A stretch of DNA of 64,000 bases from an uncultured Staphylococcaceae bacterium (GTDB lineage: Bacteria > Bacillota_I > Bacilli_A > RFN20 > CAG-826), in the NCBI GenBank assembly GCA_964654155.1, contig CAZZGL010000002.1:35902-99901 (forward strand), written 5' to 3'. Under the pieces are notes generated by a model, which did not search any database, had not been told where the DNA came from, and worked only from the letters and a program-made list of their open reading frames with translations. Position numbers and translations under genes: made by a program. Below are positions 6,108-30,318 of the stretch, one piece after another. Every line of letters starts with the position of its first letter. The first letter of the stretch is position 1.

Positions 6108-7250
<1,143 letters not shown>

Positions 7251-7309
7251 TTAAAACAATGTCTATTATAACATAATAAAAAAGCCCTTTTACTTATTTA
7301 TTCGCTTTT

Positions 7310-8602: not shown

Positions 8603-8619
8603 GCAGAATTTCCTCCTTT

Positions 8620-9549: not shown

Positions 9550-9635
9550 AAGCTTTACCCCTTCATTAATTATACTTTTTAATTCATTAGAATTAAAGCT
9601 CATATTTTATACTATAAATTTTAATATTTATTTGC

Positions 9636-10736
9636 CTATTTATATCGTAAATAACGAATAAACTGTTCATTTAAAGTATATTTTCTATTACTTTTAATTT
9701 CATAATGTTCAATACATCGTGATTTACATCCTCTAATATTTTTTCCAACATAATCATTTAATGTTTGAATACATACAAATCCCTCTTTATTTTTATCTAC
9801 AACAAATATTCCTTCATTGCGATGAAATAAATCTAAAATGTTATTATTATGCATCGACAAATATAATGTTGCTCCATGAGGATTAGTATTTTGATTAATA
9901 AACATTTTTAAAAAGTTTTTTACTACTTGTAAATTAATCGAAGAATCTATTTCATCAATAATTAAAATAGAACCATTTTTTAAAGCAAAATACGCTGTCA
10001 TAAAAAGTAATACACCTTTCAAGGTTCCAAAGGATATAATATTTATCATTTCCGATAATGAAAATTTATGTACTTTCCCATATATTTTTATGAAAAAGTG
10101 CATTTTATCCTCACTAAGCTTTATACCCTCAATTAAAGGTTCAAATATATTAAATATATTTAAAAATATATTTTTATCCATCCGTTCATATAATCTAATT
10201 ATTTTTAAGATAATTTCGCCAGAAGATAATTGCATAATATGAAAAACGGACTCCTTCTGCGTGATTAATTCTTTTTCTTTTTTTAGATGATAAAAATTCC
10301 CATTATATAATGTTGTTGGATGAAATTTTTTAATCTTTTTATACCTTAAATATTGTCTTTTTACTATACAATAAGTAACTTCAAAAGACGCTTCCTTAGA
10401 AGGATAAATATTACAACGATAATTATATAAATAATCGTTTTCTGCTACAAAGATTTCTAAATCAATATTATCCTTTGCAAAATCCAATCTGTTATAGCAA
10501 ATGCGTCTATTATTTAATAATTCATATGACATTAAAATCAATGATAAAACACTTGTTTTCCCTTGTCCATTTCCACCAATGATTGAATTGCATATATTGC
10601 TATAAGTGCCTTGAAAAACATTCAATAATTCACTATCTAGCATTGCTTTTCGTGGAACTTTATCAGAAATAAAATCAATACTAAAATTATCCTTTAATTT
10701 TCTAAATCCAGACACTATAATTTTTAAAATTCTCAC
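9636..10736 (-). CDS. AAA family ATPase (ABC/SMC/RecF-like head, OLD/AAA_21-type), solitary
   Basis: N-terminal ILKIIVSGFRKL, Walker A GGNGQGKTS and Walker B ILIIDEIDSSI. It apparently starts on GTG with no SD. No adjacent partner gene. Confidence 0.6.
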   Translation of the reverse strand: MRILKIIVSGFRKLKDNFSIDFISDKVPRKAMLDSELLNVFQGTYSNICNSIIGGNGQGKTSVLSLILMSYELLNNRRICYNRLDFAKDNIDLEIFVAENDYLYNYRCNIYPSKEASFEVTYCIVKRQYLRYKKIKKFHPTTLYNGNFYHLKKEKELITQKESVFHIMQLSSGEIILKIIRLYERMDKNIFLNIFNIFEPLIEGIKLSEDKMHFFIKIYGKVHKFSLSEMINIISFGTLKGVLLFMTAYFALKNGSILIIDEIDSSINLQVVKNFLKMFINQNTNPHGATLYLSMHNNNILDLFHRNEGIFVVDKNKEGFVCIQTLNDYVGKNIRGCKSRCIEHYEIKSNRKYTLNEQFIRYLRYK

Positions 10737-14887: not shown

Positions 14888-16255
14888 ATGGCAAAAAAAA
14901 GAGATTTAAATTTAGGAGAATTTGAAGCTATATGTGAAGATATATCTTTTGATGGTAAAGGAGTAACTCATTATCAAGGAAAGGTTGTTTTTGTTCCAGG
15001 CTTTTTTCTTAATGAAAAAGCGATTATTCGCTTGGTATATGAAAGAAGCGAATTTTATGCTGGGAAAATTATTAAAATAATCGAAAAATCTCCATACAGA
15101 ATAGAACCAAAATGCAAAATATGTTCTAGTTGTGGTGGCTGTTGCTATCAACAATTAGAATATGCCTCGCAATTAGAATATAAAACTAAAAAGGTTAAAG
15201 ACGCTTTCTTTAAATTTGCCAAAATGAATGTTAATGTTGAACCTTGTATAGGAATGACAGAACCATATTTTTATCGTAATAAAATTCAAATGCCTATCGG
15301 TATATCTCAAAAAGGAAGGATTATTACTGGGTTTTATAAAGAAAAAACCCATGAAATTGTTCCTGTAGATAAATGCTATATTGAAAACGAACAAGCGGAA
15401 GAAGTTTTAAATATAATTAAAGATTTAATGAAAAAATATAAAATATTGCCTTATAACGAGGACACAAGAAAAGGCATTATTCGTCATATCTTGATAAGAA
15501 CTTCATTCCATAAAAAACAAATTATGGTTGTATTAGTAACAAATCAAGATGAATTCGGCGGAAGAAGAGAATTTGTAAAAGCTCTTCATTTAACTTGCTC
15601 ATCGATTACAACAATTGTACAAAACATTAATACCCGTGATACAAATGTCATATTAGGTGAAAAAGAACGTGTTCTGTATGGAAAAGGGTATATTGAAGAT
15701 TCATTATGTGATGTTTGGTTTCAAATATCCGCGAAATCATTTTATCAAATTAATCCTATTCAAACAGAAATTTTATATAATACCGCAATTAAGCTTGCTA
15801 ATTTAAGTGGAAATGAAACTGTTTTAGATTGTTACTGTGGAATTGGAACAATAGGTTTAATTGCTTCTAAATATGCAAAAAAAGTTATCGGTATTGAAAT
15901 TGTTAAAGAAGCCGTTTCTGACGCAATTAAAAATGCAAAAAGAAATAATATTAGCAACGAAACTTTTGTTGTCGGTGACGCAAGTGAGTATATGGTTGAA
16001 TACGCTAAATCAAAAGGAAAAGTTGATGTTTTGTTTATGGATCCACCAAGAAAAGGTTCTGATCAAAAATTTTTAAGTTCTGTATTAACTTTACTTCCTA
16101 AAAAAATCATCTATATTTCTTGTGATCCAACTACTTTAGCAAGAGACATTAAGATTCTTTCTTCTAAATATAAAATAACTAGAATTCAACCTGTGGATAT
16201 GTTTCCAATGACTTATCATGTAGAGACAATCTGTGCTTTAACATTAAATAAGTAA
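14888..16255 (+). CDS. rlmD: 23S rRNA (uracil-C5)-methyltransferase RlmD/RumA family (TRAM + Fe-S + SAM MTase)
   Basis: N-terminal TRAM domain, a CKICSSCGGCCYQQ Fe-S cluster and a C-terminal class I MTase (DCYCGIGT, MDPPRKG). Confidence 0.85.
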   Translation: MAKKRDLNLGEFEAICEDISFDGKGVTHYQGKVVFVPGFFLNEKAIIRLVYERSEFYAGKIIKIIEKSPYRIEPKCKICSSCGGCCYQQLEYASQLEYKTKKVKDAFFKFAKMNVNVEPCIGMTEPYFYRNKIQMPIGISQKGRIITGFYKEKTHEIVPVDKCYIENEQAEEVLNIIKDLMKKYKILPYNEDTRKGIIRHILIRTSFHKKQIMVVLVTNQDEFGGRREFVKALHLTCSSITTIVQNINTRDTNVILGEKERVLYGKGYIEDSLCDVWFQISAKSFYQINPIQTEILYNTAIKLANLSGNETVLDCYCGIGTIGLIASKYAKKVIGIEIVKEAVSDAIKNAKRNNISNETFVVGDASEYMVEYAKSKGKVDVLFMDPPRKGSDQKFLSSVLTLLPKKIIYISCDPTTLARDIKILSSKYKITRIQPVDMFPMTYHVETICALTLNK

Positions 16256-16444
16256 TATCGAATACGCGTTAAAATATATTTAAATTAATTATGTTTCCAA
16301 TCATAAATGATATATTTAAAAATAATAAAAATTTTATTATTTATGTTAGTTTTATAATGTAGGGGAAAAATTAGTAAGATTATAACAATCCCTTCGTTAA
16401 AGCCTTCATTCATTTTTTATGCGATTACCCTAAATAAACAATAT

Positions 16445-16501
16445 TTATTGTATTTTTTTAATTAAGCAAATGATATAATATTCACAGAAAGGCAATATTG
16501 C
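16445..16501 (+). promoter_or_regulatory. Promoter region of the defense operon: TG-extended -10 TGATATAAT (16471-16479), with the 10-bp palindrome GCAATATTGC (16492-16501) just downstream
   Basis: Seen directly. The poor -35 is offset by the extended -10. The palindrome sits at the predicted +1 to +20 region. Confidence 0.3.
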
Positions 16502-16571
16502 ATTATGGCATTTACAAATAAGAATTAATTAGCAAAAAACAAAAAAGAAATTAGTAATAAGAGGGAAAAAC

Positions 16572-17807
16572 ATGGCATTTTACACAAGAGAAGAAGCAAA
16601 GGTTAAAATAGAGACAATTTTGAAAGAACAACATCCACTTAAAACAGGCCAAACATTACCAATCAGAAGTGGAACAAAGTTTAATGTCTATTCAATTCCA
16701 GTAGAATATTTAGCCCCCAATGTTTTAAATGATAGAATAGCTTGGAGAATCAGAGAATTTGAAGCTTCAAATGGTAGAAAACTATCATTCGACTCACCAG
16801 AAGATGTTGAATATGTATACGAATTATTAGAAAAAGAATCTCCAAAAGAAAACGAAAAAACATTAAAAGATTTAGCAGAAAAAGGGCAACAAGTTGATGG
16901 CATCATAACCAAAGATGGAATTATAATTGATGGTAATAGAAGAGCTACTTTACTAAGAAAATTATTTAAAGGAGCTGCTTCAAAGTTCAATAAAAATCTA
17001 GAAGATTTTAGATTTTTTAACGCTATTGTTTTATCAGAAGACATTGATGATAAAGAAATTATGGCATTAGAAACTAGAATTCAAATTGGTGAAGACAAAA
17101 AATTAGATTATAACCCTATTTGTATGTATATTAAAGTTGATAATTTATCCGCAGCTGGATATAATGATCAACAAATTGCCAATTATATGAATATTACAGA
17201 AAGTGATGTAAAAGAAAAAAAAGAGATTTTTAGGTTGATGAATGAATATCTTGAGGCAATTGGGAAGCCTAATCATTATACATTATTAGAAGGGTTAGAA
17301 GATCAATTCATAAATACTAAAACTGTATTTAAAAGAATGGACAACAGAACATATCAAACATATGATTGGGATTACACAGCTGAAGATGTTGCAAATTTTA
17401 AACAAGTTTGCTATGACTATTTAAGAGCGAAATTTGAAGGAAAAAAATATAGGGATGTATTAATTGGAAAGTCTTTTAAAACAAATGGCGTATTTATTAA
17501 AAAAAGTGTTTGGGAAGAATTTTTTGAAAACCACGAAAAAGTAATTAATGATAATAATCCGCAAAATGAAAAAGACTGGGAAGCTCTAGGCAAAAAACAA
17601 TTTGTACAAATTTTAAAAAATGCATCTTTAAAGTTAGAAGAAGTATTAAATGAGAAAAATGTATCATCATTAGTCATAACAATTCAATCAAAAATCAGAA
17701 ATCTTATGGATTGTTTAAATGAAAATAATGAACTAACACAAGAAGACTACAAAATTTTAAAAAAAGCTAACAGTCTATTATGGGATATATTGAAGGAATA
17801 TAAATAA
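16572..17807 (+). CDS. ParB/Srx-superfamily (DUF262/GmrS-like) NTPase-domain protein, first gene of the defense operon
   Basis: The GIITKDGIIIDGNRRATLLRKL motif matches the ParB box II (GxRR) and the DUF262 (DGQQRxT) signature. No HNH/DUF1524 C-terminal domain. The stop overlaps the next gene's ATG (TAAATG). Confidence 0.55.
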   Translation: MAFYTREEAKVKIETILKEQHPLKTGQTLPIRSGTKFNVYSIPVEYLAPNVLNDRIAWRIREFEASNGRKLSFDSPEDVEYVYELLEKESPKENEKTLKDLAEKGQQVDGIITKDGIIIDGNRRATLLRKLFKGAASKFNKNLEDFRFFNAIVLSEDIDDKEIMALETRIQIGEDKKLDYNPICMYIKVDNLSAAGYNDQQIANYMNITESDVKEKKEIFRLMNEYLEAIGKPNHYTLLEGLEDQFINTKTVFKRMDNRTYQTYDWDYTAEDVANFKQVCYDYLRAKFEGKKYRDVLIGKSFKTNGVFIKKSVWEEFFENHEKVINDNNPQNEKDWEALGKKQFVQILKNASLKLEEVLNEKNVSSLVITIQSKIRNLMDCLNENNELTQEDYKILKKANSLLWDILKEYK

Positions 17808-19796
17808 ATGAACGAAGCTATTTGCAAGTTTAAAGATAATATTTTGCTTATTGCCGGTTTACCATTAGATAATCAAAGAAAAATTATGAAAATTAAGCTT
17901 TTTTTAAATCCCTATCAATTGCTTTCATATAGATTTATAGATAACACATTAGAAATAAAATTTATTATTGATGATGCAAACATTATTGTTAAAGAGATAA
18001 ATGAAATCATAAAATTTATTGAAAATGTTTTTAATATAAGTATTTTACTTGACGATAATATTAAAAAAAGTATAGATATACAAACAACCAAAGTTTTAAC
18101 TTTTAATGAAACCATAAAAAAATTAAAATCATTAAAAAATGGCTGCTTAGAAAAATCCGACGAATTTATCAAATACTGTGAATTTTCTGATCGTACTTTA
18201 AAATGTAAATTAAGGTCTTATCAGTATACTGCTTCATATTTTTTAACGATTGGTCAAGGCGGCTTTGATTTTTCTGTCCCTGGCTCCGGAAAAACCATTA
18301 TAACTTATGCTTCATATAATTATTTGAGATATAATAAAATTTGTGATTGCATTTTAATAATCGGACCTATAAATTCATTTAATGCATGGTTTGATGAATA
18401 TGAAACCTGTTTTAATAATCAACCTGATTTTATTTCTTTATCCTCTTACACAAAAAAAGATGCAGAAATATATCTACTATCATCCAAAAATTATCATAAA
18501 GAAATAACCTTTATAAACATTGATAAAGTATGGAGAATGAGAAAAGAATTAATCAATTTTATTAAGAATAAAAATATATTGCTCATAGTAGATGAAGCTC
18601 ATAAAGAAAAAAATCCAAACGCACAAATTACGAAAGCTGTTCTAGAAATAACAAAATATGCAAAATATAGAATTATTCTCACTGGTACACCTATGCCTAA
18701 TGGATACGAAGATTTATTTTCTTTAATGAAAATTTATGAGCCTTATGAAAGAATATTACCGTACAATTACAGTGAATTGGTAAAATTAACAAAAATTGGT
18801 GCAAATAAAGACCAACAAAGTAAAATTATGCAGGCTATCAAACCAATCTATTCTAGGGTATCTAAAGCATATCTATTAAATACCGGAGAATTACTTCCAC
18901 CTAATTACAGATTTATTAAATGCAAATTATCAAATGAACAAAAAGAAATTTATAATTTTTTAAACAAAATGGCATTTCAAATTGAAGACGACTTTAATTC
19001 TATTTTAAATTTGAATTTAATGAAAGCTATATTAATTAGAAAAATGCAAGTTTCTGCAAACCCTGGATTATTATCAAAAAGCATAATCAATTCAATTGAA
19101 GAATATTATGAAGAATATTATGAAGATTTCAATAAAGAAAATTCAGATAATGAAGCTTTATTAAAAGCTGATAATGATATAAAAAAAGCAATCGCAGCAT
19201 CACCAATTGCTAATTTAATATATAAATTTGAATCAGGTTATTACCAATCACAGAAAAATATAATTGCAGTAAATCTTGCCTTAGAATTAGTTTCAAAAGG
19301 GGAAAAAGTTATTATTTGGGATGTTTTTGTTCAAAATATGTATTCTATAAAAAAATTATTAAATTCTAAATCAGACATAGAAATTGAAATAATTAATGGC
19401 ACAATTAGTGGTCAAGATAGGCAAAATGCAATAAATAGATTTAAATTAGGAAACAGCATGATTTTAATTGCAAATCCAGCAACCTTAGCTGAATCAATTT
19501 CATTACATAAAGCATGTCATAACGCTATCTATGTTAATAGAAATTTTAATGCAGCACAATTTATTCAATCAAAAGATAGAATCCATAGAATAAATATGCC
19601 AAAAGAAATAACAGCAAATTATTATTTTATAATTAATGAAGATACCATTGATGAAACTATTCAAGATAGACTTGAATTAAAAGAAAATAGAATGATTAAA
19701 ATTTTAGACTCTGATGAACTTGAAATAGGTGGATCCGAGTTTGAAAATAATTCATTTATGTCTTTGGATGACATTATTTCATCCTTCAAAAAGTAG
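17808..19796 (+). CDS. SNF2-family DEAD/DEAH-box helicase/ATPase
   Basis: Motif I VPGSGKT, motif II LLIVDEAH, motif III ILTGTPMPNG and C-terminal motif VI QSKDRIHRI. Translationally coupled to the upstream ParB-like gene. Confidence 0.8.
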   Translation: MNEAICKFKDNILLIAGLPLDNQRKIMKIKLFLNPYQLLSYRFIDNTLEIKFIIDDANIIVKEINEIIKFIENVFNISILLDDNIKKSIDIQTTKVLTFNETIKKLKSLKNGCLEKSDEFIKYCEFSDRTLKCKLRSYQYTASYFLTIGQGGFDFSVPGSGKTIITYASYNYLRYNKICDCILIIGPINSFNAWFDEYETCFNNQPDFISLSSYTKKDAEIYLLSSKNYHKEITFINIDKVWRMRKELINFIKNKNILLIVDEAHKEKNPNAQITKAVLEITKYAKYRIILTGTPMPNGYEDLFSLMKIYEPYERILPYNYSELVKLTKIGANKDQQSKIMQAIKPIYSRVSKAYLLNTGELLPPNYRFIKCKLSNEQKEIYNFLNKMAFQIEDDFNSILNLNLMKAILIRKMQVSANPGLLSKSIINSIEEYYEEYYEDFNKENSDNEALLKADNDIKKAIAASPIANLIYKFESGYYQSQKNIIAVNLALELVSKGEKVIIWDVFVQNMYSIKKLLNSKSDIEIEIINGTISGQDRQNAINRFKLGNSMILIANPATLAESISLHKACHNAIYVNRNFNAAQFIQSKDRIHRINMPKEITANYYFIINEDTIDETIQDRLELKENRMIKILDSDELEIGGSEFENNSFMSLDDIISSFKK

Positions 19797-19804
19797 GTGT
19801 AACA

Positions 19805-20509
19805 ATGGAAATTAATCAAATAATTCTTTTAAACAACTTATTAAATGAAGAAATTAAAAAATACGAACTCTTTTCTACGAACGAATTAAAGGAAATGCTC
19901 GGTATTGATAAAAACTCCAAAAATCTTAATAGAGTTATTTTTAATAAAATTATTGAATCATCTATCAATAGAGATATACTATTGACATTACTCAAACAAT
20001 GCTCTTGTATTATAAAAACTGTAAATTTAGAATGGAATAATTCATTGAAAGAATCGATGTCATTAAACGTTTTTAAATATTTTGACATATGTAATGAAAT
20101 TTGGGAAAATTCTAAATTATATAAATATTTTATAGAAAATACTTTTGTTTTTGTTGTTTTTAAAAAAGATTTTAAAGGTAGCAAACTGGAAAAAATTAAA
20201 GTTTGGAAAATGCCTAAAAGTATATTAAACTCTGGAGTTAGAGAAACTTGGAGTATAACACAATCTTTAATTAAATCTGGAAAAATTATAAACTACATAG
20301 ATAAAAGAAATCGCTTTATAACATTTTTTCCAACTAGTAGCGAAACTAAATATATTCATGTTAGACCTCATGCACAAAATAGAAATGACACTCTTGAATT
20401 ACCTGTCCCTGATAAACTAACTGGTAAAACAAGATTTATGAAACATAGTTTCTGGCTAAATAGTAACTTTGTAAAGAAAATAATTGTAGAGGACAAATAT
20501 TATGAATAA
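19805..20509 (+). CDS. MutH/Sau3AI-family endonuclease, putative type II REase of a GATC-type R-M
   Basis: The C-terminal YIHVRPHAQNRNDTLELPVPDKLTGKTRFMKHSFWLNSNFV aligns with the E. coli MutH C-terminal arm ([38 protein letters not shown]). NSGVRETWS matches the MutH NSGVTWETS segment. It has a D-x6-E-x2-K candidate catalytic triad. Confidence 0.6.
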   Translation: MEINQIILLNNLLNEEIKKYELFSTNELKEMLGIDKNSKNLNRVIFNKIIESSINRDILLTLLKQCSCIIKTVNLEWNNSLKESMSLNVFKYFDICNEIWENSKLYKYFIENTFVFVVFKKDFKGSKLEKIKVWKMPKSILNSGVRETWSITQSLIKSGKIINYIDKRNRFITFFPTSSETKYIHVRPHAQNRNDTLELPVPDKLTGKTRFMKHSFWLNSNFVKKIIVEDKYYE

Positions 20510-21287
20510 TTTAAATAGACAAGAATTAACAATTATTTTAGCATATTATTTTTTTGATAGCAGAAAAACAACTATTAATACAATGAACTCTTTTAACACT
20601 AGATTTAATTTAACTTTTAAAAAAGATTTTAATACTCAAACACTAATATATTATTGCTCTTTATTTAAAAATATCGATCCTTCATTTAATGCCAAACCAA
20701 TAAATAATGAAGATTTAAGAATTAATGAACTATGGAATTATTATATTGTGCAAGATAGAATAAGTGATTTAAAAAAAATATATAATAGTTTTAAGCAAGG
20801 TCTACTAAAAAAAAGAATAATATCTATTAAAAATGAGGCTGCCGATGATATAAATGAATACATATCTAAAGAAATAAAAAATTTACATTTTACTTTTTTA
20901 GGAGATGAAGCTAAAAATTTATATAATTTGTCATCATTTTCAAGTCAATCACTTCGTGATTTAAACGTTTCCTTTAATGCTTTAAACTTAGCTAAGTTTA
21001 AATGTGAAGTAGACAATAGCCATAAAACTTTTATAAGAAAAAATATTGATATTCCATATACTGAAGGACATCATATAATACCATTGCAATACCAATATCT
21101 ATTTAAATCTAATCTTGATGTAGAGGCTAATGTCGTATCTTTATGCAGTAATTGTCATAATAATCTGCATTATGGAAAAGATTTTGAAGAATTATTAACA
21201 ATAATTTTTACAGATGAAAGAAAAAAAAGATTAGAAAAATGTGGAATAAAAATAACATTAGAAGAACTAATTTCTTTTTATAAATAA
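20502..21287 (+). CDS. HNH endonuclease-domain protein
   Basis: C-terminal EGHHIIPL...NVVSLCSNCHNNLHYG is the canonical HNH/His-Me finger with a zinc-ligand Cys pair. It overlaps the MutH-like gene by 8 nt. Confidence 0.7.
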   Translation: MNNLNRQELTIILAYYFFDSRKTTINTMNSFNTRFNLTFKKDFNTQTLIYYCSLFKNIDPSFNAKPINNEDLRINELWNYYIVQDRISDLKKIYNSFKQGLLKKRIISIKNEAADDINEYISKEIKNLHFTFLGDEAKNLYNLSSFSSQSLRDLNVSFNALNLAKFKCEVDNSHKTFIRKNIDIPYTEGHHIIPLQYQYLFKSNLDVEANVVSLCSNCHNNLHYGKDFEELLTIIFTDERKKRLEKCGIKITLEELISFYK

Positions 21288-21302
21288 AGAAAGGATTATC
21301 CA

Positions 21303-22550
21303 ATGAAAAAAACAGTAGTAGAACTATTCGCCGGTGTAGGCGGATTTAGAGTAGGATTAAATAAAATTAAAAAAATTGATAACAATGGTCAGGCTATTGA
21401 AAATAAAAAATTTAAAATTATTTGGGCAAATCAATGGGAACCATCAACTAAAGCACAACATGCCTATGAATGCTACAAACTAAGGTTTAATTGTTCAGAA
21501 GAAGAATGTTCTAATGTAGATATATCCTTAATTGATAAAAGTTCAATTCCTTCTCACACATTATTATGTGGCGGATTTCCATGTCAAGATTACTCTGTCG
21601 CAAGATCATTAAAAAACGAGAAAGGAATTGAAGGAAAAAAAGGCGTTTTATGGTGGCAAATTTATGAGGTTTTAACTATTAAAGAACCTCCGTTTGTTCT
21701 TTTAGAAAATGTTGATAGATTATTAAAATCACCTTCTAAACAAAGGGGGCAAGCTTTCGGAATTATGTTAAGATGTTTTTATGAATTGGGATATTCCGTA
21801 GAATGGCGAGTCATAAACGCCGCACAATATGGTCACCCTCAAAGAAGAAGAAGAATATTTATTTTTGCATATAAAAATACAACAAAATATAGTAAAAAAA
21901 TGGGAATGTTATCTCTACACGAAATAATAACTTCTAAGGGAATTTTTGCTAAAAAATTTCCTGTTTCAAATTTAAAATATAAAATTAAAGAAATAGATAT
22001 CAAAGATTATAAAAGCTTAATAGATGTTTCTGAAAATTTTAAATTTATTTTTGAAAATTCTGGATATATGAATAATGGCATAATATATACTTTCAATACT
22101 ATTGCAAAAGAAAATAAGCCATTCGTCTTGCGCCAAATTCTTGAGAAGAGTGTTGATGAAAATCTATTTTTATCCCATTATAAAATTAAAAAATTTTCTT
22201 ATTTAAGAAATTCTAAAAAAATATTAAGAACTAGAAAAGAGGATGGCGGGACTTATTATTATTCCGAAGGAGCAATGGCGCCATATGATTCTTTAGATTT
22301 ACCTGGTAGAACTATGCTTACGAGTGAAGGAACAGTTAATAGGAGTTCTCATATAATAAAAGATCCTAATGAAAACAAACTAAGATTTTTATCTCCTATC
22401 GAATGTGAAAGATTGAATCAATTTCCCGATAATTGGACATCAACCATGTGCAATAGGAAAAGATATTTTATGATGGGAAACGCTCTTGTTTGTGGAATTG
22501 TATCAAAACTAGGTAATGAAATTTACAATATTATTAGAGAAGAAGATTAA
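21303..22550 (+). CDS. DNA (cytosine-5)-methyltransferase
   Basis: Motif I ELFAGVGGF, motif IV GGFPCQDYS, motif VI LLENV, motif VIII QRRRRIFIFAY and motif X MGNALV. Confidence 0.9.
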   Translation: MKKTVVELFAGVGGFRVGLNKIKKIDNNGQAIENKKFKIIWANQWEPSTKAQHAYECYKLRFNCSEEECSNVDISLIDKSSIPSHTLLCGGFPCQDYSVARSLKNEKGIEGKKGVLWWQIYEVLTIKEPPFVLLENVDRLLKSPSKQRGQAFGIMLRCFYELGYSVEWRVINAAQYGHPQRRRRIFIFAYKNTTKYSKKMGMLSLHEIITSKGIFAKKFPVSNLKYKIKEIDIKDYKSLIDVSENFKFIFENSGYMNNGIIYTFNTIAKENKPFVLRQILEKSVDENLFLSHYKIKKFSYLRNSKKILRTRKEDGGTYYYSEGAMAPYDSLDLPGRTMLTSEGTVNRSSHIIKDPNENKLRFLSPIECERLNQFPDNWTSTMCNRKRYFMMGNALVCGIVSKLGNEIYNIIREED

Positions 22551-22613
22551 TGTAAAAACAAATTAAATGCTCAATTAAATAATTAAACAAAAAACTAATT
22601 ACCACATTATATT

Positions 22614-22637
22614 AGGCGCTTTAAGCGCTCTTTTTTA
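22614..22637 (+). terminator. Rho-independent terminator after the MTase gene
   Basis: GGCGCT-TTA-AGCGCT stem followed by CTTTTTT. Confidence 0.5.
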
Positions 22638-22731
22638 TACTAAAATATTTGCTTTTCCAAAATTCACTAAAATATATCCCGATTTACAATAGCTTTTCTT
22701 TTTTTCTTAATTATTCTGAGAAACTATCGCT

Positions 22732-22786
22732 GTAATCTGTAAATCCTAAATATTTAGATTACATTCTTTTATTCAAATGATATAAT
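22732..22786 (+). promoter_or_regulatory. Nested palindromic operator GTAATCTgtaaatcCTAAATATTTAGATTACat overlapping the -35 of a TGATATAAT promoter for the PLD-nuclease gene
   Basis: Outer arms GTAATCT/AGATTAC and inner 12-bp perfect palindrome CTAAATATTTAG. The TG-extended -10 is at 22778-22786, 25 nt before the ATG and an AAGGAGAG RBS. Confidence 0.45.
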
Positions 22787-22810
22787 CAAAAACATAAGGA
22801 GAGTTAACTT

Positions 22811-23596
22811 ATGATTAAAACAATTAAAACACCATCCGATAATACTTTTTATACACTTATAAAAGAAGCAAAAAATAGTATATATTTATGTGCTCCTTAT
22901 ATCAAAAAAGATATTGTAGATAAAATTTTATTTCATAAAAAGCAAGGTATCGAAATGATAGTTATAACATCATCAAATATATCAAATTTTATAAATGGCT
23001 CATTAGATGCTTCTGCAATAAAAGAACTGATAAAAAATGATGTTGTTGTTAGAAATTATCAAAAACTACATGCAAAAATTTATATTTTTGATAAAAAGAA
23101 AGCACTTATTACTTCTGCAAATCTAACAAATAACGGATTGTATAATAATTTTGAATATGGAGTGTTAATTGATGATGATACAATAACAGATAAAGTATAT
23201 GAAGATTATATTCAAATGATTAACGACGATCAATGTGGCACTTTTAATGATGCTTTATTAAATAGAGTTTCTAAGATTAAAATTAAGAAAAAGCCCATTA
23301 TTAATATAGATAATGATCACGACGCTATTATTATTGAAAATATTAATAATCTAATTAAAACTATGACTTCTTGGCAAAAAGATGTCTTTTTAATCTTAAA
23401 TCAAATGGCAAATGAATACTTCACAACTTCGGATATCTATTCATACTCTAATGAATTAAAAGCAAAACATCCTCATAACAATCATATAATAGAAAAAATA
23501 AGACAAATATTACAACAATTACGAGATATGGGATTTATTAAATTTCTTGATCGAGGAACTTATAAAAAATTGTGGATTGATAAAAACAAATTTTAA
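22811..23596 (+). CDS. Phospholipase-D-family (HKD) nuclease with a C-terminal winged-helix-like domain
   Basis: Single HKD motif LHAKIYIFDKKKALITSANLTNNG, as in Nuc/BfiI/NgoFVII-type nucleases that dimerise. The C-terminal ~90 aa are predicted helical and wHTH-like. Confidence 0.7.
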   Translation: MIKTIKTPSDNTFYTLIKEAKNSIYLCAPYIKKDIVDKILFHKKQGIEMIVITSSNISNFINGSLDASAIKELIKNDVVVRNYQKLHAKIYIFDKKKALITSANLTNNGLYNNFEYGVLIDDDTITDKVYEDYIQMINDDQCGTFNDALLNRVSKIKIKKKPIINIDNDHDAIIIENINNLIKTMTSWQKDVFLILNQMANEYFTTSDIYSYSNELKAKHPHNNHIIEKIRQILQQLRDMGFIKFLDRGTYKKLWIDKNKF

Positions 23597-23644
23597 TTAT
23601 TTCTCCCTATCTGTAATTAAATAAACAACAATACTTAAATTACA

Positions 23645-23692
23645 AAGAGTTATTAACATGAAATTTAATTCATTTAATTAACTCTTTTTTTA
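23645..23692 (+). terminator. Rho-independent terminator of the PLD-nuclease gene
   Basis: AAGAGTTATTAA...TTAATTAACTCTT long imperfect stem followed by TTTTTTT. Confidence 0.5.
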
Positions 23693-23955
23693 TTTGATAG
23701 CTATGACGATATAAAATTGAATTGCACTTCATATAACTAAATTATTTATCAATAATAATTCTAAGTTTATTAATATTATAATTCATAATTTATGAACTAT
23801 TTTTTATTAAAAATCAGTTATTAAATTATTATTTAATATATATTTATATATATTAATTTTAAAAAAAATTATGAACAAAAAAATTCATGACATTGCTAAT
23901 TTTTATTACAAATAATACGATTTATAATTTTGTTGTAATCAAGGAGTGATGAAAG

Positions 23956-25278
23956 ATGAATAAAACAAAAATAGACTTAGATTCAATTTATGGATATGCC
24001 TGTGAAAAAGAAAAGCTAAAAAAAATCATTGATGAATTAAATAAAATTAAAACAGATAATACAAAGACAACTATTTATAAATCTGTTATTTTTTGTGGTC
24101 CAAAAGGTAATGGAAAGCACTTATTCGCGCAAGTGTTAGAGAATGAAACCAATTGTCCTCTTTATGAATTATCTCTTAATGATAATTGTGATGAAGATTT
24201 TATCACAAATGTTTTTTCTGAGGCAGCGGATAATAAACCATCAATTATAGTTATTGACGGAATTGATAATCTTATCAAAAGTAATCTCTTAGATAATAAA
24301 AAACATAAAGCGTTATTTACATTAACTAATTTATTATTATATAAAAATAACAATGGTATCATGACCATTTTAAACACAGATAATTTAGATTCTCTACCAA
24401 AAATTTACCTTGGTAATAATAAAAATAAACCCGTTATCAATTTAAATAACCCTTCTTTAAAATCAAGATATAATATAATATCAAAATATATTGCTCAAAC
24501 TACTTTTAGTTTTGAACCTAAGGTTAGTTTTATGGCGAAAGCCACAAAAGATTTTTCTGTTGAAGAAATATTAGTCTTACTTGATACTTGTATGACATTT
24601 TCTTCAAAAGATAACATCGTTTCTATAAAAGTATTTATTGAACAACTTAACAATATAAAATCATTTAATTTTATTATTGAAAGTGACTATAAAAAAGATT
24701 ACGCAATTGCAATTCAAGAACTAGGCAAATTATTTGTAGCGCGCCACTTTAAAAAGGGAATATACGAAATAAACATCGATAGAAACGAACCTTCTTCAGG
24801 AAGCATTTTTAATAATGATATTTTAAATGAAATAGGACCTTGTAAAGATGAATATGATGATTATTATGAAACTCGCCTTAATTCCGTTTTATTCTTTTCA
24901 AGAGATGATTTTGAGAAAATAATAATGGCTAATATAGGTAAAGAAATAGCTTCTGATTTAATATTGAATAACAATTATTCAAACCTTTATTATGACCATT
25001 TAGATCTTTATAGCAAAATTAAATATGCAGTAACTAATGGATTGTATGGAATTAAATTCGCAAATGATTATAGCTACGATTTTAATACCTTAAGAGGAAG
25101 AAAAACTGAAGAAAAAATAGATCAAGTAATTAATGATTTATATGAAAGAACTGAAAAAATTGTAAAAGAATATCTCCCCTTAATAACCACACTTGCCAAT
25201 TTATTAGTTAAAAAAAGACAAATGGATGATAAGGAAATAGAACCAATTATCATTGATTGGTTTAAAAATAATCAATAG
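23956..25278 (+). CDS. AAA+ ATPase with an unknown C-terminal domain
   Basis: Walker A VIFCGPKGNGKH and Walker B PSIIVIDGIDNL. The N-terminal IYGYACEKEKLKKI resembles AAA substrate-recognition lids. The C-terminal ~200 aa have no recognised motif. Confidence 0.65.
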   Translation: MNKTKIDLDSIYGYACEKEKLKKIIDELNKIKTDNTKTTIYKSVIFCGPKGNGKHLFAQVLENETNCPLYELSLNDNCDEDFITNVFSEAADNKPSIIVIDGIDNLIKSNLLDNKKHKALFTLTNLLLYKNNNGIMTILNTDNLDSLPKIYLGNNKNKPVINLNNPSLKSRYNIISKYIAQTTFSFEPKVSFMAKATKDFSVEEILVLLDTCMTFSSKDNIVSIKVFIEQLNNIKSFNFIIESDYKKDYAIAIQELGKLFVARHFKKGIYEINIDRNEPSSGSIFNNDILNEIGPCKDEYDDYYETRLNSVLFFSRDDFEKIIMANIGKEIASDLILNNNYSNLYYDHLDLYSKIKYAVTNGLYGIKFANDYSYDFNTLRGRKTEEKIDQVINDLYERTEKIVKEYLPLITTLANLLVKKRQMDDKEIEPIIIDWFKNNQ

Positions 25279-25290
25279 GAGGTATATAAC

Positions 25291-25488
25291 ATGGATTTAG
25301 AAAACTTATCAATATTGCTACACTATGCCTTTATTTTAAGTTGTGCGATACTTGCTTTATATTTAACTATTAAAATATTTACACAAAAAAGAGTTTCAAT
25401 AGGTTTTTGTCTATTTTTTCTATTTGTTGGTGCATTCTCATTTTTTGGCGAATCCGAACTAAATAGTGTAACAAATAATCATGATTAA
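25291..25488 (+). CDS. Small two-TM membrane protein; the ORF ends at an in-frame TAA and an in-frame open frame continues after it
   Basis: GGAGG RBS and two hydrophobic helices. See the pseudogene entry 25489-25760. Confidence 0.4.
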   Translation: MDLENLSILLHYAFILSCAILALYLTIKIFTQKRVSIGFCLFFLFVGAFSFFGESELNSVTNNHD

Positions 25489-25760
25489 AATGTAGTTACT
25501 AAAAAGAAAGCCCCTACTTTAGTTAGTACAGAACAAACTGAATTAGGAACTGGAGTTAATGTAAAAATAAAATGTAATGATAATTATGAATATGTTATTA
25601 TAAGGCTTAAAGTTTATAAAGATGATACTTTTGTAAACAAATATGAAAAGCAATTAGATGACTTAATTAATAATAAAACCTATACTGTACTATTTTCCTT
25701 TTCCATAAGTGATATGACTGTAATTAATAAATATAGTTGTGAAATTGCTGAATATAAATA
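25489..25760 (+). pseudogene. In-frame 90-codon continuation after the TAA, with no start codon: a likely nonsense-interrupted 156-aa membrane-anchored protein
   Basis: Same frame as 25291-25488. The first in-frame ATG lies in the last ~20 codons. No RBS is present. Confidence 0.25.
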
Positions 25761-25873
25761 AACATTATCTCCACAACCTCATTTATTAAAACTACTTTAA
25801 TAATAATGATTCTCGCTTCTCTATTTAATAAAATCGATATGCTATCATTAAACCAAATAGAGAGGAGATCATT

Positions 25874-27664
25874 ATGAAATCTTTATTAACTTTAACAGCA
25901 TTATTGCTAGGTTTTGGCATTCAATCTTTGCCTCAAACAATTAAAAATGAAACTATCAAAGACACATACCAAGCTAATAATAATTTAATTAATTTTCCAA
26001 CTGTAGTTACAAATATAAAAACCGCCGAACATTTAAATTCTCTTTTATTAACAGATACTATGCCTTCTAATGCAATACTACATGTTAATAATGATTTGAA
26101 TGTTGTTGATGAAAACAATAATTCTCTTGGCTCTTTAAGCCATGTTATTAATGATATATTACAGGATTACATCATTCCTATTGTTTATCTTGAAAATGAA
26201 ATCCAAGCTTCTAAATATGTTGAATTCATAAATGAAGAATTAATTATTGATATGGCTATAATGGCAAATAATCCATCATTGATTAAAATGGTTAAAGATA
26301 CCCACTATGTTATTAGAGGAATATATCATGTTAAAGAAATATCGAAAGATACAAAACTATGTGACTTAGTATATACTGCGAATAAAAACTACGCTAATGT
26401 GATTGCATTAGATGATGAAATTGCAACAAGAGAAAATGTCACATATTTACAAGCAAGATTTAAAACTGTATGGATTAATCAAACTAATGAAAATGATTTT
26501 AATCTTTATTCTTCAATTAATACAGGTTGCTATGGAATGATTGTTGATGACTATGAAAATTTATATAATCTGTATCTTAATTATGATAAAGGAACTTTAA
26601 TTCGAAACCCATTTAATGTTGCACACAGAGGATTACCAATTTTCTATAATGAAAACTCTGTTTATGGAACTCAAAAAGCTATTGAATTAGGAGCAACCCA
26701 TGTTGAACTAGATGCCTATTTAACCACTGATGATGAAATCGTATTTATGCATGATAGCAATATTGAAAGAACTAGTGATGGAACTGGAAATATAGAAAGT
26801 TATTCGCTTGAACAACTACAAAATTTTTCTTTAGATTTAAAATCACCATCAGAACCGATTCCATCAATAGAAGATATAACCGTCCCTATTATAAATTCGG
26901 ATGCAATCTTAGTTTTAGAAATAAAATCTAGTAATACAAAAATAGTTGAAATACTACGTGAAAAATTGACAGAACTTGATTTGTTTTCTAAAACTGTTGT
27001 AATTTCGTTTAATACCAATATCCTCGCGGCAATGAAAGAAATTATTCCTGAGATACCAACCGCAAATTTAAATGATGTTTTTGTTTATAACTTCGCTTCT
27101 GTATTAAATTGGATGGGATTATATAATACTGTAATTGATACTCAATATAGTAGAATCACTAAAGAGAATAACGAACTTTATTTAAAAGATAGAGGAATAA
27201 TGGGTTGGTTTTGGACATATAATTCTCTTACTGATATAGATACTAGCATTAGTTCTGGCGTTATTGGAATGACCAACAACTGTTGTAATTTTTTTACTAA
27301 TCAAATTAGATATATTGATGGTAAAGAGTTTACTTTAAAAAAAGGTCAAAAAATTAATAATGCAAATTTCACTCTTCTTAGTTCGGCTTATGGTGGAAAT
27401 CAAGATGAAATAGAAGGAAAACTTTTTAAATATGAAGAAAAAGATGAATACTACGAGGTTATATGTTCATTTGAAACTAAATTTGGTGATTATAATAAAG
27501 TAACTTTTTATACTGAATCATTTAAAGTATATAAACACCCTGATGATGTTGGTAATGATACCGTAAACAAGGGTTGTGTAAAATCATCAACAAATATTCT
27601 ATTTACTTTGTCATTAATTGGACTACTATCACTTGCTTTAAAAAAGAGAAATAATATTTTTTAA
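25874..27664 (+). CDS. Exported glycerophosphodiester phosphodiesterase (GDPD)-domain protein with a C-terminal TM anchor
   Basis: Signal peptide MKSLLTLTALLLGFG. GDPD motifs HRG...ELGATHVELDAYLTTDDEIVFMHDSNIERTSDGTG. C-terminal hydrophobic segment LSLIGLLSLALKKRNN. Confidence 0.7.
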   Translation: MKSLLTLTALLLGFGIQSLPQTIKNETIKDTYQANNNLINFPTVVTNIKTAEHLNSLLLTDTMPSNAILHVNNDLNVVDENNNSLGSLSHVINDILQDYIIPIVYLENEIQASKYVEFINEELIIDMAIMANNPSLIKMVKDTHYVIRGIYHVKEISKDTKLCDLVYTANKNYANVIALDDEIATRENVTYLQARFKTVWINQTNENDFNLYSSINTGCYGMIVDDYENLYNLYLNYDKGTLIRNPFNVAHRGLPIFYNENSVYGTQKAIELGATHVELDAYLTTDDEIVFMHDSNIERTSDGTGNIESYSLEQLQNFSLDLKSPSEPIPSIEDITVPIINSDAILVLEIKSSNTKIVEILREKLTELDLFSKTVVISFNTNILAAMKEIIPEIPTANLNDVFVYNFASVLNWMGLYNTVIDTQYSRITKENNELYLKDRGIMGWFWTYNSLTDIDTSISSGVIGMTNNCCNFFTNQIRYIDGKEFTLKKGQKINNANFTLLSSAYGGNQDEIEGKLFKYEEKDEYYEVICSFETKFGDYNKVTFYTESFKVYKHPDDVGNDTVNKGCVKSSTNILFTLSLIGLLSLALKKRNNIF

Positions 27665-27691
27665 ATATAATTAATAATTAGAGAAACAAAT

Positions 27692-30127
27692 ATGAACAAT
27701 TTTGATAAATGCAATCCCTTCACAAACAAAAATAACATTTTATATTTCCGTAACTGGCGGATTTCTATTTTAAAAGAAGGAATAATAAGATTAGAACAAA
27801 ACAACAACGAATTTAATGATTATCCTACTCAAATAGTTATAAATAGATATTTTGATGATATTGATTATAAAATTGAACATGAAAAGAACTATATTAAAAT
27901 TTTTATTAAAGACTATATTCTATTCTTTAATGGAAATATTGAAGAATCATACATTTTATATAAAAAACAAAAATTATTACTTAATAACGATTATAATCTA
28001 GGTGGAACTTATTCTACCGTCGATGGAATGGACGGAGAAAAATATATTTTTAACGATGATAAAAAATCAATAAGAGATATTGGTATAGGTGTCTGCTCTA
28101 AAAATGGAGTTGCGGTAATTGATGATTCTAATTCCTATTGTTTTGATCAAGATTGGAAATTTTCTTTTATCAACAAGGATATAATAAATGTTTATATATT
28201 CTTTTATCCAAATGATTATCGAACCGCAATAAAAGATTATTTTGAAATATCTGGTTATCCTCCAAAACTTCCTAAATATGTTTTTGGTAATTGGTGGAGT
28301 CGTTATTATTGTTATTCTGCACAAGATTATCTACGACTTATGGATAATTTTATTGATGAAAATATTCCCTTTACTGTAGCAACAATCGATATGGATTGGC
28401 ATTATTCAACTTCAATTAAAAGAGATATTTTTGATGACTTAAAAATTGATAAAAGTGAATTTATATCAAATGGGCAATATATTTGCTCTGGTTGGAATGA
28501 TAATTCACCTTTATCACATGGCTGGACTGGATTTACATGGAATAAAGAATTATTTCCTGATTATAAATCTTTTTTAAATGAACTTAAAAAAAGAAATCTT
28601 GCAATTACCTTAAATATCCATCCTAATGATGGGGTCGCATTTTATGAAGAAGAACTATATAATTCTCTTGCAGACGCTTTAAATATTGACACATCAAATA
28701 AAAATAATATTCCATTTGATTTTACTAATGATCATAACAGAAAAGCCTATTTTGATAATATATTCAATAAATATGAAAAAGATGGAGTTGATTTTTGGTG
28801 GATTGATTGGCAACAAGGAGAAATATCTAATCTTAAAGGTTTAAAACCGATATGGTTATGTAATCACTATTTCTATTTAGAAAACATGAAAACAAATAAT
28901 AGACCGTTAATATTATCGAGATATTGTGGAATAGGTGGACAAAGATATCCATTAGGTTTTTCTGGCGATAGCGTTCAAAGCTATGATTCTTTAAAATATT
29001 TAGTTAAAACCACCCCTATGGCAAGTAATGTTGGCTTCACTTACTGGAGTCACGATGTCGGTGGGCATATGATGGGATATAAAGATGGGGAACAACTTTT
29101 AAAATTTGTTCAATTTGCTACCTTCTCACCTATTTTACGAATGCATTGTTCTTGTGAAGATGTATATGATAAAAATCCTTCTTTATTTTTATCAGGATAT
29201 GGTGAATTAATAAAAAAATACTTACGATTAAGACATCGTTTAATACCATTTATTTACAGTTATACGCTCATATCTAATAATCAAGGATTAGCTTTATTAG
29301 AACCTCTTTATTATCAAAATAGCAATGATGAAAATGCTTATAAATATAGTGAAAGCGAGTATTATTTTGCTTCATCTCTTTTAGTCGCGCCTTATATTAA
29401 TAAAGCTGATGAAGATAAATATTCAAAAAAGGAAGTATATTTTCCAAATTGTACCTTTTATGATTATAAATATGGCTATAAATATAAACCTAATAATATC
29501 TTAGTAATTAATCGTGAAATTGATGATATTCCTGTTTTTATCAAAGAAGGAGCGTTTTTATTGTTAGATCATAATAAAATCGGTAATGATCTTTCAAACC
29601 ATCACATTATTGATGTTATCACTACATATGGTAATGGAAATTATGAATTTTATGAAGAAGATAATAATGATAAGCAAATTATTACTTCATTTGAAAATAT
29701 TATTAAAGGTGACAAAGGATACATAAAAATAAAGATTACTGGAGATAAAAACTTATATCAGAAAGACCGAATTTTTAAATTTATCTTATTAAATGTTTTT
29801 AATATCGAATACATTAACATTGATAATGCAGAAATATCCAACATTTATAAAGGTGATTGTTTAGAATTTGATATCACTAACATTCCATTTAATCAAGAAA
29901 TAATAATTAATTATAAAACACAAAAACTTAATGATGTTTCTTTAGCAAAAAAATATGTTATTAAAAGATTAAAATATTTAGATGATAGCAATTTAATAAG
30001 AAATGATATTTTCTATCAAATAAATAATTGCGATAACATTAACCAATTAATAAAAATAATTAATGAGAGTAATTTAAAACAAATAAATAAAACCTGCTTA
30101 TTGGAAGTAATTAATTTTGCGATTTAA
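27692..30127 (+). CDS. Glycoside hydrolase family 31-like (alpha-xylosidase/alpha-glucosidase type), cytoplasmic
   Basis: GVDFWWIDWQQGE matches the GH31 nucleophile region (YicI GVDCFKTDFGE). FSGDSV and HDVGGHMMG align with the GH31 WGGD and HDIGGF motifs. Confidence 0.6.
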   Translation: MNNFDKCNPFTNKNNILYFRNWRISILKEGIIRLEQNNNEFNDYPTQIVINRYFDDIDYKIEHEKNYIKIFIKDYILFFNGNIEESYILYKKQKLLLNNDYNLGGTYSTVDGMDGEKYIFNDDKKSIRDIGIGVCSKNGVAVIDDSNSYCFDQDWKFSFINKDIINVYIFFYPNDYRTAIKDYFEISGYPPKLPKYVFGNWWSRYYCYSAQDYLRLMDNFIDENIPFTVATIDMDWHYSTSIKRDIFDDLKIDKSEFISNGQYICSGWNDNSPLSHGWTGFTWNKELFPDYKSFLNELKKRNLAITLNIHPNDGVAFYEEELYNSLADALNIDTSNKNNIPFDFTNDHNRKAYFDNIFNKYEKDGVDFWWIDWQQGEISNLKGLKPIWLCNHYFYLENMKTNNRPLILSRYCGIGGQRYPLGFSGDSVQSYDSLKYLVKTTPMASNVGFTYWSHDVGGHMMGYKDGEQLLKFVQFATFSPILRMHCSCEDVYDKNPSLFLSGYGELIKKYLRLRHRLIPFIYSYTLISNNQGLALLEPLYYQNSNDENAYKYSESEYYFASSLLVAPYINKADEDKYSKKEVYFPNCTFYDYKYGYKYKPNNILVINREIDDIPVFIKEGAFLLLDHNKIGNDLSNHHIIDVITTYGNGNYEFYEEDNNDKQIITSFENIIKGDKGYIKIKITGDKNLYQKDRIFKFILLNVFNIEYINIDNAEISNIYKGDCLEFDITNIPFNQEIIINYKTQKLNDVSLAKKYVIKRLKYLDDSNLIRNDIFYQINNCDNINQLIKIINESNLKQINKTCLLEVINFAI

Positions 30128-30187
30128 TGAACCAAACTATGAAAAAAGGGAGTAACACCTAATTTGGCGCTATTCCCATTTTTTACT

Positions 30188-30211
30188 GGCTCTTTAAAAT
30201 CTGGGGTGGTT
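30188..30211. repeat. IS left terminal inverted repeat
   Basis: GGCTCTTTAAAATCTGGGGTGGTT. Confidence 0.8.
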
Positions 30212-30318
30212 GGCGAAATTAAGCAAACCACTCTAAATTTTATAGATTTCGAACTTCAAAAAGAAAAGACCTCTTATAATTTATGTGTCAAATCCAATTA
30301 TTAAGGAGGTCTTTTCAT

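Follow-up and report, generated by a model that had tools for sequence, protein, structure and literature searches.

What is the functional unit among eight consecutive plus-strand open reading frames (ORFs) at 16572-25488 in a 64-kb stretch of DNA from an uncultured Staphylococcaceae bacterium (contig CAZZGL010000002.1, hereafter the window), and what does it do? The ORFs, here labelled P1-P8, lie between rlmD (14888-16255; NCBIfam RlmD, E 4e-134) on the left and genes for a GDPD phosphodiesterase and a GH31 glycosidase on the right. The original prediction correctly placed eight genes between rlmD and carbohydrate genes, and read them together as one compact defence island, akin to DISARM and possibly a new restriction-like system. 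We find that the real unit is a five-gene operon at 16572-22550, comprising P1-P5 without P6-P8, which recurs as a conserved and mobile cassette. This operon probably encodes a single five-component, nucleoside triphosphate (NTP)-dependent restriction-modification (R-M) system specific for GATC. Coordinates are positions in the window throughout, and the features are collected in Table 1.

Extent, mobility and recurrence of the cassette

The very dense gene packing that had been predicted for the whole island is found for P1-P5, where successive junctions measure 0 nt, an 8-nt gap, an 8-nt overlap (P3/P4) and a 15-nt gap, but not for P6 and P7, which are set apart from the preceding gene by 260 and 359 nt. 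A terminator-like hairpin with a T-run lies 3' of P5. Since only two such sites occur in 16200-26000, a number no higher than in shuffled sequence, the argument for this terminator comes from its position and not from its occurrence. Tight packing and hairpin together indicate, from layout alone, one five-gene operon followed by two or three further units. The G+C content is ~25% throughout, with no compositional step at the island; at this composition a promoter scan was uninformative (104 matches vs 80 expected). The sign of the GC skew flips at ~12 kb, ~31 kb, 45-48 kb and 61 kb, apparently tracking blocks of co-oriented genes.

The prediction had also held that no tRNA, integrase or direct repeat borders the island. 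Neither a tRNA nor an integrase is present in the window, but P1-P5, and no other gene, lie between the two copies of an imperfect 18-nt direct repeat (family D13), which are identical at 16 of 18 positions. AT-rich chance matches seem to account for most of the short repeats in 15.8-26.5 kb, among them D1, which spans nearly the whole island; D13 is the only one with an independent breakpoint behind it. The breakpoint is seen in a contig from a related strain (L127), which is 94.7% identical to the window over 22768-30215, that is, across P6, P7, P8 and the GDPD and GH31 genes, and which has unrelated genes, not the cassette, upstream of P6. Because this breakpoint at 22768 meets the right repeat copy, the cassette can be seen as a separately exchangeable block at a variable site downstream of rlmD. 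In loci L005-L010, a cassette again lies downstream of an rlmD-like gene, with a 65-aa helix-turn-helix (HTH) controller-like gene before it and two serine recombinases after it. At the 3' end of rlmD in the window, 25 nt (16198-16222, TATGTTTCCAATGAC...) are partly repeated 92 nt downstream, at 16290-16314, with 76% identity. This repeat could be an integration scar; the L005-L010 cassettes lie in a like position.

The same five genes recur well beyond this genome, as seen in the contexts of P1 homologues and in the 10 species that a scan of 185,579 species genomes brought up. The complete set, consisting of P1, an SNF2-family ATPase, P3, an HNH nuclease and a C5 cytosine methyltransferase (MTase), is found in the same order and at full length in L003-L014 and L047, whose hosts are Enterosoma-like Bacilli, Prevotella, Scatosoma and Clostridia (gut Bacillota and Bacteroidota). 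A second layout has the same genes in varying order together with a full-length Sau3AI gene (Ruminococcaceae, Lachnospiraceae, Erysipelotrichaceae and Clostridia, the last exemplified by L014), and a third has P1-SNF2 beside a divergent MTase and a full-length Sau3AI, without P3 and P4 (Muribaculaceae and Erysipelotrichaceae). The flanking genes vary from locus to locus, and P6, P7 and P8 are present in none of them; conservation of gene order, proposed earlier as a check on the island, is thus found for P1-P5 and fails for the rest. Across 10 distinct cassettes, pairwise identities co-vary, with r 0.86-0.96 for P1-P4 among themselves and 0.78-0.84 when any of these is paired with the MTase. 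Mean identity is highest for P1 (64%) and lowest for P4 (42%). The co-occurrence of the five genes is far beyond chance.

Five proteins and a candidate target site

No family model in Pfam, NCBIfam, PADLOC v2 or PHROGs matches P1, nor does the sequence of any solved structure in the PDB. It had been called a ParB/DUF262-like NTPase, and the first half of that label stands: structure comparison supports a ParB/Srx fold, with resemblance to KorB and Spo0J, but there is no DUF262 (PF03235) match at E<=0.1. The invariant sequence DGNRRA (residues 120-125) sits at a strand-helix junction, which is the site of the ParB arginine-rich box, and this motif together with the N-domain fold places P1 in the ParB/Srx superfamily. 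Pfam gives a sub-threshold match to ddrB-ParB (E 0.035). P1 may bind and hydrolyse CTP or another NTP and close as a clamp on DNA. The family is large: a word-index search found 492 homologues, none with a Pfam domain, and a profile search of 1.84 billion representative proteins found 1347 clusters at E<=1e-3 and 144 at E<=1e-30, counted at 50% identity.

For P2, P4, P5, P7 and P8, the labels given in the original prediction (SNF2 helicase, HNH nuclease, C5 MTase, AAA ATPase and small membrane protein) hold up. P2 matches the Pfam models SNF2-rel_dom (4e-24) and Helicase_C (1e-9), and its motifs are intact: GSGKT (residues 159-163), DEAH (262-265), TGTP (292-295) and motif VI, QSKDRIHRI (587-595). 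The ~150 aa at its N-terminus match no assigned domain. Its best PADLOC matches, ZorD and DpdE, concern the helicase part only.

P3 had been taken for a MutH-like nuclease, one of two small nucleases in the island. P4 accounts for the HNH member of that pair; P3, in contrast, is by its sequence a catalytically dead half of Sau3AI. It covers positions 241-474 of the 475 in the NCBIfam model restrict_Sau3AI, scoring 130 bits vs a cutoff of 300, and matches the C-terminal domain in the Sau3AI structures 4pxg, 2reu and 7xm0 (E ~1e-17). Related loci supplied seven full-length Sau3AI homologues, whose N- and C-halves we used separately in an alignment with P3. D-x6-E-L-K is present in the N-halves where P3 reads L...CIIKT, so that both acidic residues of the catalytic D-x6-E-x-K motif are gone from P3 and its orthologues, as they are from the C-halves, and the C-half signature (KESMS, HVRPHA, SFWLN) is kept in P3 and its orthologues. 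P3 was consequently rejected as a type II endonuclease of the Sau3AI family. The C-terminal domain of Sau3AI is a non-catalytic effector that senses the GATC site and relieves autoinhibition (bioRxiv 10.64898/2026.04.21.719898). By homology, P3 is a predicted reader that would bind unmethylated GATC.

The catalytic motif of P4 is intact. Pfam assigns HNH (PF01844) at 6.8e-6, with the residues EGHHIIP (188-194) and CSNCHNNLH (215-223) containing the invariant pattern EGHH..N..C..CH..H. A model from AlphaFold2 (AF2), with a predicted local distance difference test (pLDDT) score of 79.5, was matched by Foldseek to the HNH domains of EcoKMcrA (6ghc, 3e-4) and ScoMcrA; Foldseek found no structural match for the N-terminal five-helix domain, which is specific to the ParB-like/SNF2 cassette. 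The HNH half, a portable nuclease module, is 50-60% identical to that of proteins with SRA or McrB-N readers.

P5 is a C5 MTase (Pfam 1.3e-62; PADLOC type II MTase 1e-163) with motifs I, IV, VI, VIII and X intact. Its orthologues are 45-57% identical overall and 33-44% identical in the variable target-recognition region, without change in length. They adjoin Sau3AI-family restriction endonucleases in L001, L014, L016-L020 and L034, and in L042 only a stand-alone Sau3AI N-domain. Three of these Sau3AI-family neighbours (in L001, L018 and L034) were scored against the NCBIfam model; all are full-length and reach 534-572 bits, above the equivalog cutoff of 300. Because P5 orthologues adjoin Sau3AI-family proteins and P3 is homologous to one of their domains, GATC is the most likely target, and P5 probably marks it as GATm5C.

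Modular relatives, a proposed mechanism and its alternatives

More distant P1 relatives (26-40% identity) occur in phage, plasmid, viral-contig and metagenome collections. In a pool of 103 distinct P1 relatives, SNF2 follows P1 immediately in 84 of the 85 loci with enough sequence, the sole exception being an orphan P1 copy on an odd 3.9 Mb contig, and of the 40 loci with ample flanks, 38 have a C5 MTase at most a few genes away. The other partners fall into sets: a BanI-like fold with NOV_C (17), Sau3AI-C with HNH (10), a long MTase with NOV_C (9) and Sau3AI only (2). Reader type tracks MTase type, in that Sau3AI-type MTases occur with the Sau3AI-derived C-half, the N-half (L042) or the full-length protein. 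The constant core is thus the ParB-like protein, SNF2 and the C5 MTase, and reader and effector are exchangeable.

Representative variants are given at the end of Table 1. The C-terminal extension of the long MTases has no BLAST relation to readers. In the distant enterococcal/Listeria branch, the SNF2 protein is shorter (620 aa) and the plasmids are conjugative and mobilizable. Among all these relatives, no PADLOC model matches any P1-like protein, and PHROGs holds nothing for P1, P3 or the prophage relatives. P0411, in which an MTase and P1 seem to be fused, is probably a gene-call artefact and was left out. In L055 a TIR protein apparently takes the place of the nuclease, which hints at NAD+ depletion or abortive infection in some members. 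Enzymes resembling AspBHI, a 5mC-dependent type IV type (RE_AspBHI_N + Mrr_cat), adjoin cassettes in L014 (17966-19156), L019 (16022-17266) and L020 (6394-7599), and Vsr mismatch endonucleases are present in L001, L014 and L016.

Table 1. Features of the locus in the window and of representative related loci (for the latter, positions are those of the locus named)
Feature	Position	Strand	Size	Description
Left repeat	16462-16479	+		TTAAGCAAATGATATAAT; putative TG-extended -10 promoter-like element just upstream of P1
P1	16572-17807	+	411 aa	ParB/KorB-fold protein, HTH-like middle part, helical C-terminal part
P2	17808-19796	+	662 aa	SNF2-family ATPase
P3	19805-20509	+	234 aa	Stand-alone homologue of the Sau3AI C-terminal effector domain
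P4	20502-21287	+	261 aa	Five-helix N-terminal domain, then McrA-type HNH nuclease
P5	21303-22550	+	415 aa	C5 cytosine DNA methyltransferase, putatively Sau3AI-type
Hairpin and T-run	22615-22629	+		Terminator-like, 3' of the five-gene operon
Right repeat	22769-22786	+		TTATTCAAATGATATAAT; promoter-like element of P6
P6	22811-23596	+	261 aa	PLD/HKD nuclease domain and DpnI C-terminal reader; neighbour only
P7	23956-25278	+	440 aa	Degenerate FtsH-like AAA with M41 remnant; neighbour only
P8	25291-25488	+	65 aa	Small membrane protein; neighbour only
Streptococcal (Javan-type) prophages				BanI/DpnII-fold protein, P1-like, SNF2, NOV_C PD-(D/E)xK nuclease, C5 MTase
Long-MTase branch				C5 MTase of 535-566 aa, extended at the C-terminus by a further domain, followed by P1-SNF2-NOV_C
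L055	4411-11305			C5 MTase (555 aa), 109-aa protein, P1-like, SNF2, ThsB-like TIR (PADLOC 1.7e-39) last
L042	234-7031			Stand-alone catalytic Sau3AI N-half (253 aa) beside P1-like, SNF2, MTase
L020	5029-13242			HNH protein upstream of P1, full-length Sau3AI, no separate C-half
L131, Listeria-associated contig	195-4471			VRR-NUC/RE_endonuc endonuclease, P1-like, SNF2; overlapping ORFs
L022, E. faecalis pQZ076-2 and ~50 others	4363-10038			864-aa HTH protein, P1-like, SNF2, then insertion sequence (IS) elements

We propose the following working model for the five-component system. P5 would methylate the cytosine of GATC in host DNA, as its orthology suggests. P3, having lost its nuclease residues, would bind unmethylated GATC and pass the site to a motor made up of the SNF2 ATPase P2 and the ParB/KorB-fold protein P1, which would translocate, or clamp and slide, along DNA using NTP hydrolysis. 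The motor would then license the McrA-type HNH nuclease P4 to cut unmarked DNA. P3 and P4 would in effect replace the one-chain Sau3AI, with the PD-(D/E)xK half swapped for an HNH protein.

Several observations weigh against this model. L018, L019 and L034 have ParB-like/SNF2 genes, without P3 and P4, beside a complete Sau3AI R-M pair that could in principle work by itself, and L001, L014, L016 and L017 hold both kinds of nuclease; complete Sau3AI pairs beside P1/SNF2 imply that the latter pair may be an accessory module and not an obligate subunit. No MTase is visible in the E. faecalis-plasmid loci, which are interrupted by IS elements, or in the Listeria-associated locus, of which 5 kb are available. 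The GATC specificity of P5 and P3 derives from homology and neighbourhood, and the identity in the target-recognition region of P5 is just the 33-44% given above. The under-representation of GATC in the window (109 observed vs 191 expected, ratio 0.57) favours the model, but is weak evidence because GGCC (0.28 observed/expected), ACGT (0.45) and CATG (0.59) are also depleted in the 64 kb. The joint depletion of these sites suggests several restriction pressures in the lineage.

A wider version of the model can be put forward tentatively. P1 may be an NTP-gated clamp or loader which, with SNF2, forms a general patrol module that uses C5 methylation to tell self from non-self, with plug-in readers drawn from dead or halved type II enzymes and with HNH, NOV_C, Sau3AI or TIR effectors. 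If true, this would define a new class of restriction-modification/abortive-infection platform and be the first case of ParB-type clamp chemistry in restriction.

The main rival holds that two independent systems lie side by side, an ATP-free split Sau3AI-like type II R-M system (P3, P4 and P5) and a two-gene ParB-like/SNF2 module, accessory or stand-alone, which would only accompany C5-MTase R-M systems and might boost restriction or act on escaping DNA, with P1 as a ParB-type nickase. Both sets of Sau3AI-bearing loci just described would fit such an arrangement, as would the unexplained helicase genes between Sau3AI-like and NgoPII-like R-M systems in Listeria (PMC10059834), and defence genes do cluster without functional link. 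We nevertheless consider it unlikely. P1/SNF2 without a C5 MTase and a nuclease is almost never seen, and in streptococcal prophages the reader-like and nuclease genes flank P1/SNF2 on both sides with overlapping ORFs. P3 and P4 co-diverge with P1/SNF2 as tightly as with each other, over the range of r given above for P1-P4. Finally, neither P4 nor the NOV_C proteins include a DNA reader, and P3 lacks a nuclease site.

The ParB-like/SNF2 pair could instead serve modification, helping the C5 MTase to reach DNA, spreading methylation or controlling expression in the manner of KorB, with P3 and P4 restricting alone. The C5 MTase is indeed the most constant partner of the pair, in one family the gene immediately before P1 encodes an MTase extended at its C-terminus by a further domain of ~200 aa, and the KorB and Spo0J proteins that P1 resembles are DNA-binding regulators and clamps; partnerships between SNF2 proteins and DNA methyltransferases (DNMTs) are known in eukaryotes (PMC10538959). 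This role is nonetheless improbable: bacterial type II C5 MTases require no remodeller, a nuclease or TIR effector always accompanies the pair, the regulator is a separate small HTH gene where there is one, and in prokaryotic conflict systems SNF2 ATPases generally go with restriction (PMC3417536).

Still less probable is a selfish module of mobile elements that acts in addiction, establishment or anti-restriction, with the methylase shielding the element and ParB-like/SNF2 acting as in polyvalent proteins. Relatives do lie at prophage ends, beside serine recombinases, on conjugative or mobilizable plasmids and by genes of type IV secretion systems (T4SS), and polyvalent proteins have ParB-like, SNF2 and MTase domains as hubs (PMC5512222). 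However, the polyvalent versions are fused, injected proteins with N6 methylases and a DdrB-type ParB, to which P1 shows only the sub-threshold match noted above; a reader, a nuclease and a cognate MTase follow the logic of R-M, and addiction and defence are compatible in R-M systems.

That the whole of 16.4-25.5 kb is a DISARM variant with DrmA and DrmB replaced, as originally predicted, is scarcely credible, because the domain-level matches behind it (P2-DrmD 1e-8, P5-DrmMII 3e-36, P6-DrmC 8e-18) are surpassed by generic families (ZorD-type SNF2 8e-26 for P2, the type II MTase model for P5), none of the eight proteins matches DUF1998/DrmB in Pfam at E<=0.1 or in PADLOC, the sole DrmA match joins that model to the helicase C-domain of the SNF2-type P2 at E 0.031, and P6, whose DrmC match runs through the generic PLD domain and is accompanied by a DpnI_C match at 5e-25, is a separate unit outside the cassette. 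Of the three DISARM functions said to be present, one therefore rests on P6, which other cassettes lack, and only generic SNF2, MTase and PLD domains link the locus to DISARM.

Neighbouring genes, named systems and implications

P6, P7 and P8 do not belong to the cassette; they adjoin it as separate genes in the variable hotspot that follows rlmD. The PLD/HKD label predicted for P6 is right (PLDc_2 8.7e-21, with one HKD motif, HAKIYIFD, at residues 87-94) but incomplete, since the protein also has a DpnI C-terminal reader, which matches the DpnI structure 4esj at E 3e-9. It shares with DpnI the winged-helix domain that in DpnI binds Gm6ATC, and differs in its catalytic domain, which is of the PLD/HKD (NgoFVII/BfiI) type and not PD-(D/E)xK; for this reason, P6 was not assigned to the DpnI family. 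Its architecture defines a family of at least 344 proteins, annotated as PLD-like or NgoFVII-family and uncharacterised, members of which are found in other defence islands or, accompanied only by an HTH gene, beside an integrase. P6 has its own promoter-like element and terminator, is found without the cassette in L127 and L044-L046, and is missing from all of the 100+ related cassette loci. From its domains, we infer an independent single-protein methyl-directed (Gm6ATC) nuclease that would work in the manner of BfiI. Next to a predicted GATC-m5C system, such a protein means that unmethylated and Dam-methylated GATC DNA might both be covered.

P7 (AAA, Pfam 6.3e-12) has no transmembrane segments and is degenerate, with GPKGNGKH (GKH) as Walker A, IIVIDGID (DG for DE) as Walker B, and QELGK for HEXXH. 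In strain contigs L127-L130 it is conserved alongside P6, GDPD and GH31. P8 is cut to its present length by a stop codon, the orthologue in related strains having 156 aa, and the pair of P7 and the membrane protein is conserved with the downstream GDPD and GH31 genes.

How does the five-gene cassette compare with named systems? It is closest in parts to Sau3AI, through the homology of P3 to the C-terminal GATC-sensing domain, the orthology of P5 with Sau3AI-paired MTases and the full-length Sau3AI genes that adjoin many of its relatives. Sau3AI, however, is one chain of ~470-490 aa with a catalytic MutH-like N-domain, whereas the cassette lacks the N-domain and cleavage is assigned to the HNH protein; moreover, Sau3AI systems have no counterpart of the invariably linked SNF2 ATPase and ParB-like protein. 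The nearest functional analogy is CglI/NgoAVII, in which a recognition-nuclease and a separate helicase-like ATPase are encoded beside an MTase, and cleavage needs NTP hydrolysis and long-range movement on DNA (PMC4267653, PMC5737866, PMC5861437). As in the cassette, reader/nuclease and ATPase are on separate chains with the MTase adjacent, and these enzymes show that a C5-type R-M logic can be combined with an ATP-dependent, multi-subunit make-up.

Other multi-gene systems share less. DISARM (classes 1 and 2) and ARMADA II are methylase-linked and include an SNF2 ATPase (DrmD and ArmA, respectively), and class 2 DISARM has a C5 MTase, but their DrmA/DrmB core (YprA helicase and DUF1998) is missing here, and the ParB-like protein and the reader derived from a restriction endonuclease are missing there; ARMADA II, with SNF2, an N6 MTase, YprA/DUF1998 and UvrD, has a different composition. 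Type III and type ISP systems likewise combine an SF2 motor, a nuclease and a methylase-defined target, and the branch with long MTase, P1, SNF2 and NOV_C is type III-like in layout. They differ in having N6 or N4 methylases and a helicase-nuclease fusion (Res), and no ParB-like subunit or C5 MTase. A ParB/Srx NTP-binding module and a His-Me finger nuclease are combined in restriction by enzymes of the GmrSD/BrxU/SspE type. These enzymes, which are mentioned in PMC12839542, are single-chain, modification-dependent (type IV) proteins with no MTase or SNF2, whereas P1 and P4 are separated by two genes in the cassette; as to GmrSD itself (DUF262-DUF1524), neither P1 nor P4 matches PF03235 or PF07510 at E<=0.1.

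The remaining candidates were rejected as well. For Dpd, the 7-deazaguanine system, there is a match of P2 to DpdE (4e-15, helicase part only) and a weak one of P6 to DpdK (0.004), with none to the transglycosylase DpdA or to DpdB or DpdC. For BREX, PADLOC and Pfam gave no match to PglZ, BrxC or PglX, and only the helicase domain of P2 matches BrxHII (2e-7). For type I Zorya, in which ZorA and ZorB form a membrane complex and ZorD fuses SNF2 to an Mrr-like nuclease, P2 matches the SNF2 part of ZorD only (463-892 of 908) and has no nuclease domain, and ZorA, ZorB and ZorC gave no match. The original prediction would have fallen had every gene been assigned to a described system; instead, P1 matches no model, and DISARM, Dpd and BREX fail as assignments. 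A multi-gene system with no named counterpart was thus correctly anticipated, though it has five genes and not eight. Full-text searches of the open-access literature turned up no description of a system combining a ParB-like protein, SNF2 and a C5 MTase, which may be described elsewhere; that literature does record in general terms that SNF2 ATPases have diversified within R-M-like systems (PMC3417536). The cassette is apparently an ATP-dependent multi-subunit R-M system of undescribed composition.

If this is true, the ~1350 P1 clusters would represent a sizeable methylase-linked defence family that current annotation tools miss, ranging over gut commensals, streptococcal prophages, enterococcal plasmids and Listeria-associated DNA. 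It would account for the Listeria 'helicase genes' beside Sau3AI-like systems (PMC10059834), and would mean that type II enzymes have been divided, reader from nuclease, and reassembled with an ATP motor at the centre. The family would then offer a natural programmable reader-motor-effector architecture, as well as a bacterial precedent for an obligate partnership between SNF2 and a C5 methyltransferase.

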